This document shows, one piece after another, positions 1,678 to 7,333 of a DNA stretch of 64,000 bases. Position 1 is the stretch's first letter; every line of letters starts with the position of its first letter. Source of the DNA: a virus; the IMG/VR virus record IMGVR_UViG_3300027816_000056; one strand, written 5' to 3'. The notes under the pieces were generated by a model that had not been told where the DNA came from, searched no databases, and worked only from the letters and a program-made list of their open reading frames with translations. The translations under genes were made by a program, and so were the position numbers.

Positions 1678-2016
1678 TTAATCTTTAAGTATTTGTTTCT
1701 TTTTGAACTTTTCAAAGTCAAAGTATGTATCGATAAGCTTATCAATGCGGCTATCCGTATATGATATATCGTGTCGATGATTTGCTTCAATTGCATCATA
1801 TATCTTGCGTTCCGTATGAGCAATTTGGTTTGATATGGTTTGTTCAACCATGTTGATGTCCCTGCTTAATTCTCGTTCGTCATCCTCGAGCCGACGCTTA
1901 AGTTTTAACACGTCTTTAGCTAAAGCTGTTACCTTAAGTATTCCTACAACGGTTACGATCGCTAAAAAGAAAACGACCATCGTAACAATACCTATAGCAA
2001 ATGATTCTAGATTCAT
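1678..2016 (-). CDS. membrane-anchored coiled-coil protein
   Basis: N-terminal TM, coiled coil, SYTDSRIDKL motif. Confidence 0.6.
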   Translation of the reverse strand: MNLESFAIGIVTMVVFFLAIVTVVGILKVTALAKDVLKLKRRLEDDERELSRDINMVEQTISNQIAHTERKIYDAIEANHRHDISYTDSRIDKLIDTYFDFEKFKKKQILKD

Positions 2017-6011: not shown

Positions 6012-6097
6012 TAGTCAGGACAGGATTCGAACCTGTGACCTCTGAAAATCCTGATTGGTTACAGCATATCATGCTCTGACCTCTGAGCTACCTGACT
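6012..6097 (-). tRNA. atypical tRNA-like RNA (possible GTA/Tyr loop on an irregular arm)
   Basis: AGTCAGG/CCTGACT acceptor, GCTC/GAGC D-stem, ACAGG-TTCGAAT-CCTGT T-arm; bulged anticodon arm with CTGTAAC loop. Confidence 0.55.
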
Positions 6098-6102
6098 ATA
6101 TT

Positions 6103-6196
6103 GAGGATGAGAAGTCCTCTGTGTTCCGTACAGGTATTACATGCATTACTGCAATCAGCTTAGTACATTCTTTATCCTTTCTCAAGGGAGAACACA
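6103..6196 (-). ncRNA. putative structured RNA with loop-mediated pseudoknot
   Basis: TGTGTTC/GAACACA stem, TGCA-GTAA-TGCA GNRA hairpin, GAGGA-CTTCTCA-TCCTC hairpin whose loop is complementary to internal TGAGAA. Confidence 0.5.
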
Positions 6197-6200
6197 TTTC

Positions 6201-6301
6201 GTAGTTATAATATCCTAAACTCTCATCAGTAGCCCATATCATCTACTGTTTGTTATGGGTTTAATCTATTAGGACAAGCCCCATCTCTTTATTACAACCA
6301 C
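6201..6301 (-). ncRNA. putative structured RNA containing an H-type pseudoknot
   Basis: 11-bp closing stem (2 GU), TCCTAA/TTAGGA stem, interleaved CCCATA/TATGGG and CAGTAG/CTACTG pairings. Confidence 0.5.
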
Positions 6302-6304
6302 TAG

Positions 6305-6424
6305 TAGTCAGGCAAGGATTCGAACCTTGAACGCTGTTTTTAACTCAGCCTCTCCAAAAAGGATAGCGTCTACCATATCAAGCACATACTATTACTCTTT
6401 GTACTATCATTCCGCCACCTGACT
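6305..6424 (-). tRNA. atypical class-II (Leu-like) tRNA-like RNA with ~35-nt D-loop insertion and no normal anticodon loop
   Basis: AGTCAGG/CCTGACT acceptor; TGGCGGAAT...GGTAGACGC Leu-type D arm; GCTG/CAGC variable arm; CAAGG-TTCGAAT-CCTTG T-arm. Confidence 0.55.
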
Positions 6425-6432
6425 TTAAAATA

Positions 6433-6507
6433 TAAGGCTGAGATTTTATCCTTCGAGATGGGAAGGGCTTATCTCAATTAAGCCTTGCCTATTATACCAG
6501 CGCCTTA
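6433..6507 (-). ncRNA. putative structured spacer RNA
   Basis: TAAGGC/GCCTTA closing stem; GGCTT/AAGCC hairpin whose loop TGAGAT can pair with downstream ATCTCA. Confidence 0.4.
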
Positions 6508-6514
6508 CGTGTTA

Positions 6515-6600
6515 TAGTCAGGACAGGACTCGAACCTGCATCTCCCCTAACCCGTTGCCATGACGGGTCTCAGGGTACTTCGCCTTTCAGACACCTGACT
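6515..6600 (-). tRNA. atypical tRNA-like RNA with extended anticodon arm (loop CATGGCA, nominal TGG/Pro)
   Basis: AGTCAGG/CCTGACT acceptor; CCCTGA/TTAGGG plus CCCGT/ACGGG double-length arm; GCAGG-TTCGAGT-CCTGT T-arm. Confidence 0.55.
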
Positions 6601-6667
6601 ATTTCTTCGGGGAGTACTCATGAGCTTAGGCATCACGCATCACACTCAATTCGCCTCCCGTCTTATG

Positions 6668-6739
6668 CGCGACCCCAAGGACTCGAACCCTGACTAATGG
6701 ATTTGGAATCCATCGTGCTACCAATTACACCAGAGAAGC
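6668..6739 (-). tRNA. tRNA-Trp(CCA)
   Basis: ATGGA-TTCCAAA-TCCAT anticodon arm, normal D/T arms, G73; two mismatches in acceptor stem. Confidence 0.75.
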
Positions 6740-6743
6740 AAAT

Positions 6744-6867
6744 AAAAACATTCAGAGGCCAAACGGGGTCAAAACATTGGGCTATTTTTTCCTTAGCTTT
6801 CCTATTTCTAGAGCTTCGGACTCCGTTCCTTTTCCCAACTTACGACCTTTTACGCGTGAATGTTTTT
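6744..6867 (-). ncRNA. putative structured spacer RNA
   Basis: Perfect 11-bp terminal stem AAAAACATTCA/TGAATGTTTTT; inner GGTC/GACC, TTGGG/CCCAA and CTA-GAAA-TAG tetraloop. Confidence 0.5.
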
Positions 6868-6868
6868 G

Positions 6869-6946
6869 TAGTCAGGACAGGATTCGAACCTGTGATAGAC
6901 GCTCTTTAGAGTCCGCTATCTTGGCAGCCAATTACACCACCTGACT
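6869..6946 (-). tRNA. atypical tRNA-like RNA (long anticodon arm, no variable loop)
   Basis: AGTCAGG/CCTGACT acceptor; GATAG/CTATC arm enclosing CGGACTCTAAAGAGCGT; ACAGG-TTCGAAT-CCTGT T-arm. Confidence 0.5.
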
Positions 6947-6952
6947 AATATT

Positions 6953-7161
6953 ATTACCTGTCCCCAAGTGAAATAAAGAATAGGTTGCCCCATTATCTTC
7001 AATTAGATAAGTCCACTTTTTTCTTTATCATCCAATAGACATAACATGTTACTTGGTTTGTGTTAGTGAGGCTCTGCGGCGCCATGAGTTTAATTATGTT
7101 AAATTTGGCAGTTCTCTCTGCTCCCACAGTTTTTATCACTTGTCTACCTTCAGCAGGTAAT
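6953..7161 (-). ncRNA. putative ~210-nt structured RNA
   Basis: ATTACCTG/CAGGTAAT closing stem; CCAAGT/ACTTGG, ATAAAGAA/TTCTTTAT, TTATCT/AGATAA and GCAG/CTGC inner stems; no ORF in the track. Confidence 0.45.
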
Positions 7162-7182
7162 GTTTTCAAAGAACGTTTCTAG

Positions 7183-7255
7183 TAGCGGAGGCCGGACTCG
7201 AACCGACGATCCTAGCTTATGAGACTAGGCGGATAACCATCTTCCACACTCCGCG
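7183..7255 (-). tRNA. tRNA-Met(CAT), initiator-like
   Basis: CTCATAA loop; C1:U72 mismatch as in fMet tRNAs; canonical T-arm. Confidence 0.85.
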
Positions 7256-7261
7256 ATATTG

Positions 7262-7333
7262 TATTCCGTACGAGATTCGAACTCGTGCCTCTGCTTAGAA
7301 AGAGCAGCGTGTTAACCACTTCACTAACGGAAC
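7262..7333 (-). tRNA. tRNA-Glu(TTC)
   Basis: Clean cloverleaf GTTCCGT/ACGGAAT; CTGCT-CTTTCTA-AGCAG anticodon arm. Confidence 0.85.

Follow-up and report, generated by a model that had tools for sequence, protein, structure and literature searches.

Tagged tRNA-like RNAs with divergent centers in an environmental phage, and the large family to which they belong

The stretch of DNA analyzed here, which we call the window, comprises 64,000 nucleotides of the IMG/VR virus record IMGVR_UViG_3300027816_000056. It is a portion of a large phage genome with a GC content of ∼34%; its long open reading frames (ORFs) are all on the minus strand, and its genes include those for GroEL, thymidylate synthase, and a family-B DNA polymerase. 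An array of RNA genes on the minus strand holds four unusual tRNA-like elements, E1 to E4, together with three canonical tRNAs. The four elements have the same acceptor stem, AGUCAGG/CCUGACU (hereafter the tag), and each bears a different noncanonical structure at its center.

6012-7333, minus strand: RNA gene array, E1 to E4 and three canonical tRNAs
6012..6097, minus strand: E1, 86 nt; scaffold model, 63.6 bits
6305..6424, minus strand: E2, 120 nt; scaffold model, 55.7 bits; no Rfam hit
6515..6600, minus strand: E3, 86 nt; scaffold model, 55.2 bits
6869..6946, minus strand: E4, 78 nt; scaffold model, 68.9 bits

Four elements with one frame and four centers

An original prediction, made from the letters of the window, had placed the four elements at coordinates that proved exact; the genes lie on the minus strand, and the plus strand displays their reverse complement. 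Each reads 5'-AGUCAGG...CCUGACU-A-3' with a T arm of the form (A/G/C)(C/A)AGG-UUCGA(A/G)U-CCU(G/U)(U/G), and the common acceptor, the discriminator A73, and the intact T arm claimed for the set are present in all four. In each of E1 to E4, the acceptor is 7 bp long and followed by a discriminator, and a UUCRANU loop closes a 5-bp T stem (an acceptor/T split of 7/5); none has a 5-bp/7-nt anticodon arm with U33 and a purine at position 37.

AGTCAGG occurs 11 times in the window against an expectation of 2.6 ± 1.6, and 9 of the 11 copies fall inside the cluster. Over the 64 kb, with filters off, a scaffold covariance model scored the four elements at 55 to 69 bits (E values of 1e-13 to 1e-16), and no score in the rest of the window exceeded those of the three true tRNAs. 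The Rfam tRNA family (RF00005; gathering threshold, 29 bits) matched E1 at 50.2, E3 at 36.6, and E4 at 31.4 bits and gave no hit on E2; its alignments skip the anticodon arm by means of a local insert of 30 nt in E1, 26 nt in E3, and 12 nt in E4. A chance origin is excluded because of the AGTCAGG excess, the scaffold-model scores, and the Rfam tRNA hits. Of the tRNA callers put forward as a check in the original prediction, ARAGORN recognized E1 only, and that as a nonsensical Ile(gat) "at position 28," with E2 to E4 left uncalled.

The folds agree with the four distinct centers that had been described. E1 has a class-I-type D arm (GCUC/GAGC) and the variable (V) loop AGGUC; a 30-nt interrupted stem (∼8 bp, 8-nt loop) stands where the anticodon arm would be and includes a 17-nt invariant core, GCUGUAACCAAUCAGGA. 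The D arm of E2 is Leu-like, with 34 nt inserted in the D loop between U16 and G18; the center consists of a 3- to 4-bp hairpin and then a 4- to 7-bp hairpin with a 9-nt loop, GCUG-AGUUAAAAA-CAGC, and the T stem is CAAGG/CCUUG. In E3, an arm of ∼11 bp (4 bp, an internal loop, and 7 bp) ends in a 7-nt loop, CAUGGCA, that lacks U33, and the V loop is AGAUG. The 27-nt arm of E4, GAUAGCGGACUCUAAAGAGCGUCUAUC, forms an interrupted 10-bp stem (5+2+3) with the tetraloop UAAA and abuts the T stem, leaving no variable loop.

Orthologues keep the aberrant centers

We compared the window elements with elements from other loci, which are numbered with the prefix L. Orthologues of E1 are present in L072, L239, L241, L248, and L251, where they are identical, and in L247 and L245. 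The 17-nt core is invariant among them, and in L245 the outer stem covaries from UGA/UCA to CGG/CCG. The orthologues of E2 (L077:7082-7190, L142:8032-8140, and L143:5247-5355) keep both center hairpins, with compensated changes at acceptor pairs 3:70 and 6:67 and a D-loop hairpin that differs from that of E2. For E4, there are orthologues in L078, L146, L148, and L144, the last with the acceptor ACUCAUG/CAUGAGU, in which two pairs are changed; across five distinct sequences, the 27-nt arm varies at one loop base only. Scans for E3 orthologues, with 15-mers in viral and 17-mers in metagenome sequences, returned chance matches only. Other orthologue groups, judged by eye, likewise keep their centers while their stems covary.

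Simple decay, which the original prediction had doubted, is ruled out because the centers are conserved within orthologue groups. The homologues do not show random decay across the acceptor and T arms: acceptor and flanking stems change by compensatory substitutions only. The claim that the elements are non-decoding also fared well, as there is no canonical anticodon arm and the aberrant arms are kept in orthologues. This pattern argues that the centers carry function and do not drift freely around a frame that alone matters. The modules also recombine: E2 and L027 have a common D-loop insertion, which in L027 stands on an unrelated center, and E2 and L077 have a common center, the other part differing in each pair.

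A large family with hypervariable inserts

A search of other phages for the shared acceptor/T pattern, proposed together with the elements, was run with a 22-nt pattern for the 3' half (T arm plus acceptor), GGTTCGARTCCTNNCCTGACTA, and found a large family. At least 120 IMG/VR viral contigs contain the pattern, as many as 6 times in a single contig, and a generic element scan of the fetched loci found up to 7 elements per locus. These loci hold at least 231 elements, 213 of them unique, with lengths of 69 to 191 nt (median, 103 nt); as the loci were retrieved by exact patterns, the family counts are lower bounds.

The consensus frame reads AGUCAGG-U8-G9-GCGG-AAU(U)GG-UAGA-CGC, then the center, then (A/U)-U48-ACAGG-UUCGAAU-CCUGU-CCUGACU-A73. 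In its D arm and core it is a class II tRNA-Leu; in a minority of members, E1 among them, the D arm is of class I and the variable loop is AGGUC. A14, A15, G18, and U48 are conserved across the family, the tRNA-Leu-type 5' region is present in 157 of 213 members, and A73 is present in 200 of 213. In a model-based alignment of 132 distinct sequences, 98.1% of the scaffold cells assigned to pairs are paired, versus ∼35% in slid controls; compensatory change occurs at 13 of 15 scaffold pairs, and none of 500 shuffles reaches the observed values. By this alignment, the scaffold is under structural selection as RNA across the family.

The centers are far more diverse than the frame: the 213 unique elements fall into 181 center clusters, 160 of them singletons, and the inserts range from 13 to 140 nt. 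A few members look ordinary, such as L051:13031-13101, which resembles a normal tRNA-Lys(UUU). The shared stem is not confined to the window phage and marks a very large family with hypervariable inserts.

Among prokaryotes (one genome per species; 185,579 species), 21 contigs match, all from metagenome-assembled genomes (MAGs) and none from an isolate genome. All 21 hold a complete element, and several come from lake, stream, or wastewater samples. Many are labeled Bacteroidota; IMG/VR and MAG contigs are no proof of a host. Because the prokaryote matches are all MAG contigs with complete elements, we conclude that the family travels with phage DNA and is no host tRNA.

The fetched loci hold further tRNA-shaped RNAs. 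A second family of 156 to 176 nt (L013:587-742, L108:836-992, L044:5302-5469, and L061:12256-12431) has the opposite pattern: its long center is conserved (...GGCAGACAYMCCCACTCGTCT..GGGCGCTGA...GGGTTGACCACAAAGCCGGCT...), and its acceptors covary freely (UGUCAGG, UGUAGAG, UGUAAGG, and UGACAGG), with G as the discriminator; no Rfam name was found for it. In a subfamily, a conserved body, (A)GCGUAAUGAGG..GG..CC..UCC...GGUUGC, replaces the D and anticodon arms. The GCGUAAUGAGG members are L076:313-387, L024:964-1041, L113:3567-3652, L045:5884-5958, L029:1483-1562, L002:9713-9833, and L009:8548-8627; their acceptors are AGUCAGG and also GGCUAGG and AGUCGAG, and some have a 40-nt insertion. Several centers contain a second T-arm-like hairpin (e.g., GGUUCGAUCCC and CCCGUUCGAGUCGGG), giving members with two T-loop modules: L039:3721-3808, L023:359-448, L048:5644-5731, L070:5526-5647, L110:727-839, L146:5130-5276, L104:291-416, L027:484-643, and L129:2961-3079.

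The acceptor as a tag

The tag, exact or within 3 of its 14 bases, is carried by 181 of 218 odd tRNA-shaped elements in the fetched loci versus 21 of 178 ARAGORN-normal tRNAs, a contrast that is inflated by the choice of loci for having one tagged element and that survives subtraction of one element per locus. Each paralogue of the window is nearer to its orthologues in other phages than to the other paralogues, and the T stem CAAGG/CCUUG is confined to the E2 group. Because these divergent paralogues all keep the same acceptor, selection by a shared reader of the acceptor stem is indicated, not recent duplication. The near-invariant acceptor, which marks the non-decoders off from the true tRNAs, suggests that some shared factor reads it.

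Two candidate explanations of the acceptor sequence were rejected. As for mimicry of a host tRNA, searches of 401 genomes from the phylum to which one carrier MAG belongs, and of 3 carrier MAGs, found no tRNA with the tag acceptor; the 401-genome search gave 2 non-tRNA chance hits, not above a reversed-pattern control. As for an attP core supplied by the 3' half of a host tRNA, the GTDB scan matched only whole elements on MAG contigs.

Processing context

Signals around the family elements resemble those around the true tRNAs in the same loci. A U precedes the first nucleotide (position -1) in 86% of the elements and in 70% of the true tRNAs; the +1 position is an encoded C (C74) in 97% of the elements and 216 of 235 true tRNAs; and the trailer is A-rich in both. 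CCA is encoded in 6 of 231 family elements and never in the true tRNAs. The elements always share the orientation of the tRNA arrays in which they lie; in some arrays, a phage tmRNA and dozens of normal tRNAs are also present. From what is known of RNase P, 3' trimming, and the CCA-adding enzyme, we infer that the elements are matured like tRNAs. Two phage tmRNA genes, L088:5724-6218 (Rfam, 68.5 bits) and L064:4975-5349 (53.3 bits), lie within very large tRNA arrays that hold tagged elements.

The remainder of the array in the window

In transcription order, the array consists of tRNA-Glu(UUC), tRNA-Met(CAU), a 235-nt spacer, E4, a 129-nt spacer, tRNA-Trp(CCA), a 66-nt spacer, E3, a 90-nt spacer, E2, a 207-nt spacer, and E1. 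Its other features are as follows.

6098..6205, minus strand: spacer RNA, conserved and structured, adjoining E1 on the upstream side
6667..6739, minus strand: canonical tRNA-Trp(CCA), within the array; ARAGORN; Rfam, 51 bits
7182-7255, minus strand: canonical tRNA-Met(CAU), head of the array; ARAGORN and Rfam
7261-7333, minus strand: canonical tRNA-Glu(UUC), head of the array; ARAGORN and Rfam

The spacer RNA at 6098-6205 (∼105 nt) is made up of a closing stem, GUGUU/AACAC, and the hairpins CCUU-GAGA-AAGG and GAGGA-CUUCUCA-UCCUC. It has orthologues at L069:374-480 and L030:3343-3435, so that in three phages it stands directly 5' of an AGUCAGG element. It may belong to the tRNA-like RNA, extending its 5' end (compare T4 rnaC), or be a separate RNA freed by RNase P.

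Directly upstream of tRNA-Glu, TAATTTTG at 7346-7339 (minus strand) matches, as read by eye, TAnnTTTG, the -7 promoter motif of Bacteroidota; as a promoter, it would make the entire array one transcription unit. A sigma-70 promoter scan gave nothing meaningful, and no intrinsic terminator was found. A CHU_C type IX secretion domain in a neighboring gene points to a Bacteroidota host. The window also encodes a Pol-beta-like nucleotidyltransferase, a weak match under the Pfam cut-offs.

What the elements may do

We see an even chance that E1 to E4 function as non-decoding RNAs on a tRNA frame; the frame would provide maturation and stability, and the variable arms would provide the function. The frame (acceptor AGUCAGG/CCUGACU with A73, T arm, D arm with G18G19, and usually the class-II core A14/A15:U48) would fold into the tRNA elbow. 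The host tRNA pathway would excise the elements from a polycistronic transcript of the array: RNase P would cut the 5' end, trimming would take place after C74, and the CCA-adding enzyme would finish the 3' end. The fold of the frame would also confer tRNA-like stability. The insertion site is the anticodon/variable-arm region, at times the D loop, and each paralogue bears a different folded module there; these modules would be the working payload, to which proteins or other RNAs probably bind.

Several observations weigh against this reading. No target of the payload, partner protein, or shared motif was found for any center. All-against-all clustering of the 2,204 ORFs of the loci gave no protein family in more than 14 of 141 loci, and the most widespread are ordinary phage genes (DUF932, terminase, metallophosphatase, ParB-methylase, ERF, and T5orf172). 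Antisense matches within the window were only 11- to 12-mers, at chance level. No convincing motif was common to 164 center representatives, the top k-mers being D-arm leftovers with a weak enrichment of AUGGU/UAAGG, and Rfam scans of the elements and loci returned tRNA and phage tmRNA and no other known RNA family. The folding energy of the centers by themselves is only modestly below that of dinucleotide shuffles (mean z, -0.71; n = 193), and the covariation alignment was itself fitted to the scaffold model. The invariance of the tag is overestimated, since retrieval of the loci fixed the 3' acceptor strand; orthologues found through their centers carry the compensated acceptors AGCCAAG, AGUCAAG, and ACUCAUG, and because of such variants, we take the exact tag to be preferred and not obligatory. 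Finally, maturation and stability are deduced from likeness to tRNA alone.

A different function would follow if the elements were aminoacylatable mimics of tRNA-Leu, charged by the host leucyl-tRNA synthetase (LeuRS), with the leucyl ester or the binding of LeuRS or EF-Tu as the function (a nonribosomal donor, a sponge, or a regulator). In Escherichia coli, leucine identity lies in A73, A15:U48, G18G19, and A20a, the anticodon and the long variable arm are dispensable, and tRNA-Leu constructs without anticodon and variable arms are still charged (Giegé and Eriani 2023, PMC9976931). The family consensus holds A14, A15:U48, G18G19, and A20a, the counts of the Leu-type 5' region and of A73 given above are in keeping with such mimicry, and C74 is encoded and CCA generally is not, as in true tRNAs. 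Yet the D arms and V loops of E1 and E3 are of class I; E2 has the identity set, but with 34 nt placed between U16 and G18; and E4 has no free position 48. The identity rules used are those of E. coli LeuRS, not of Bacteroidota LeuRS, no transferase gene is associated with the loci, and a leucyl ester as the whole function leaves the conservation of each different center unexplained. Leucine charging is plausible for the Leu-like members only (E2, partly E4, and the 157 of 213); as an account of the elements at large, mimicry seems to us unlikely. Another candidate role is that of decoys or sponges for host defenses that attack tRNAs (anticodon nucleases, acceptor-end toxins, or tail-cleaving nucleases), in which the frame titrates the effector. 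Phage tRNAs do counter tRNA-targeting defenses, according to the excerpt of PMC10264068, and the many copies per array and the invariant acceptor/T half fit such a role. However, the centers have no common anticodon-like loop, the "anticodons" called by ARAGORN are scattered and include 2- and 4-nt calls, and the frame acceptor was not found in the host genomes searched, which makes it a poor mimic of any single host tRNA. A decoy made of the frame alone has no need of centers conserved among orthologues, and we consider this quite improbable.

Two further explanations were weighed. As processing punctuation only, they would let RNase P and 3' nucleases free the spacer RNAs; the leader and trailer signals match those of true tRNAs, the units are separated by 66- to 235-nt spacers, and at least one spacer is the conserved structured RNA found 5' of an AGUCAGG element in three phages. 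But any tRNA would do for that purpose, and the tag, the conserved centers, and the 181 different inserts would go unexplained, so that we rate punctuation alone as very unlikely. Highly improbable, in our judgment, is that the elements are decaying tRNA duplicates, tRNAs interrupted by short introns, or genuine decoders whose anticodon arms are unusual (suppressor or four-base). A few members do fit the cloverleaf, the tRNA-Lys(UUU)-like L051:13031-13101 for example; E4 contains CUCUAAA, and E1 has an 8-nt loop. Against this stand the retention of aberrant arms in orthologues, arms 3 to 6 bp too long for codon contact, the lack of U33 in E3, and the position of CUA within the stem/tetraloop of E4; the long minus-strand ORFs are unbroken across the window under code 11, and Rfam scans gave no intron or ribozyme family hit for the 13- to 140-nt inserts. 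A tRNA with a group I intron, rejected as a candidate, would need at least 200 nt in the anticodon loop and a group I core, beyond the size of any insert.

A more far-reaching form of the reading in which the frame is matured and the inserts act would be a modular display of RNAs by freshwater Bacteroidota phages. Host enzymes would mature, and perhaps leucylate, a tagged frame; hundreds of modules would be swapped by recombination at conserved frame segments; each would bind a different host or rival target, such as a defense protein; and a dedicated factor that reads the tag would keep the RNAs out of translation. We regard this extended form as possible but doubtful.

Relation to known RNAs

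The closest published relatives are RNA C (species 1) and RNA D (species 2) of phage T4, small stable RNAs of the T4 tRNA cluster whose role is still unknown (PMC3014915). Like E1 to E4, both are non-tRNA RNA genes that lie within a phage tRNA array in the same orientation as the tRNAs, and RNA C has a tRNA-like acceptor/T domain as well. In our own reading of the T4 record (L368, NC_000866), the 3' 92 nt of rnaC (1910-2001, minus strand) form a tRNA-like domain without an anticodon arm, with a 7-bp acceptor (ACGGAAC/GUUUCGU), A73, and the T arm CCGGG-UUCGAAU-CCCGG. The annotated rnaC keeps a ∼46-nt 5' extension, the tRNA-like domain being its 3' two-thirds. The sequences, however, are unrelated: rnaC scores 19.1 bits with the scaffold model, where five of the eight true T4 tRNAs score 20 to 30 bits, and rnaD gives no score. 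T4 has a single tRNA-like RNA with a 5' extension and, unlike the family, no paralogue set sharing an acceptor tag, and no family with hypervariable inserts has been described around it.

Class II tRNA-Leu (RF00005), the core of which naturally takes a large extra arm, has the same D arm (GGCGGAAUUGGUAGACGC), 3-bp D stem, A14, A15:U48, A73, and T arm as the family. Unlike tRNA-Leu, the elements have neither a 5-bp/7-nt anticodon arm nor a Leu anticodon (NAG/NAA), and their acceptor was not found in the host genomes searched. In YrlA, both termini are part of the Ro60-binding stem, and a loop caps the acceptor-like helix; in the window elements, by contrast, the ends form the acceptor stem, and an Rfam scan found no Y RNA family at an E value of ≤10. 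What the two have in common is mimicry of the T and D arms and a helix that does not decode where a tRNA has its anticodon arm, as the excerpt of PMC4201824 describes for the YrlA-type Y RNAs that bind Ro60/Rsr. The 7/5 split distinguishes E1 to E4 from allo-tRNAs, which have a 12-bp acceptor branch of 8/4 or 9/3 (PMC5389517).

Engineered tRNA scaffolds keep the acceptor, T, and D arms and carry a structured cargo in place of the anticodon arm, and the cell processes and stabilizes the cargo as it would a tRNA (excerpts of PMC3753655 and PMC3401473). They are laboratory designs, unlike this natural phage family, in which the cargo may also lie in the D loop. A tRNA-shaped unit also sets RNA ends in mascRNA/MALAT1, where it draws RNase P or RNase Z (excerpt of PMC11693755). 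Both that system and the herpesvirus units considered below belong to another domain of life with other machinery, and their cargo lies beside the tRNA-like unit, not inside it as here. In murine gammaherpesvirus, the units are tRNA-miRNA genes, in which the tRNA-shaped part likewise sets the RNA ends.

Among sequenced phages, blastn with the whole cluster gave tRNA-Trp matches only, and a 35-nt probe for the 3' frame gave near matches only in the Tenacibaculum phages pT24 and Gundel_1. The cultured jumbo phage pT24 (L369, LC168164.1, 3285-4242) has three non-decoding tRNA-like genes with long structured spacers between them: a duplicated "tRNA-Undet" pair and one "tRNA-Pro." Their acceptors are other than the tag or degenerate, the "tRNA-Pro" combining a degenerate acceptor with a T arm identical to that of the family. 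As a cultured Bacteroidota phage, pT24 could serve as an experimental model. It also has an amber-suppressor-like tRNA with the anticodon CUA. Full-text searching of the literature found no description of a tagged tRNA frame with hypervariable inserts; Fremin et al. 2023 (PMC10690425) go no further than unnamed tRNA-like candidates in IMG/VR.

Implications

Extra stable RNAs such as T4 RNA C and RNA D have been known in phage tRNA clusters for 50 years; what is new here is that one frame is shared throughout and that the inserts on it are so diverse. A single environmental phage group has a very large family of such RNAs, which follows a clear rule, a constant tagged tRNA frame with a hypervariable insert that is conserved among orthologues, and this turns an anecdote into a system open to analysis and testing. 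The family would be a natural counterpart of the engineered tRNA scaffold, and it carries a warning that many phage tRNAs called "tRNA-Undet" or oddly typed may not be decoders. The frame matches anticodon-independent rules of leucine identity, offering a test of viral charged tRNA mimics outside translation. If the inserts do bind host factors, these RNAs would constitute a new class of phage RNA effectors.

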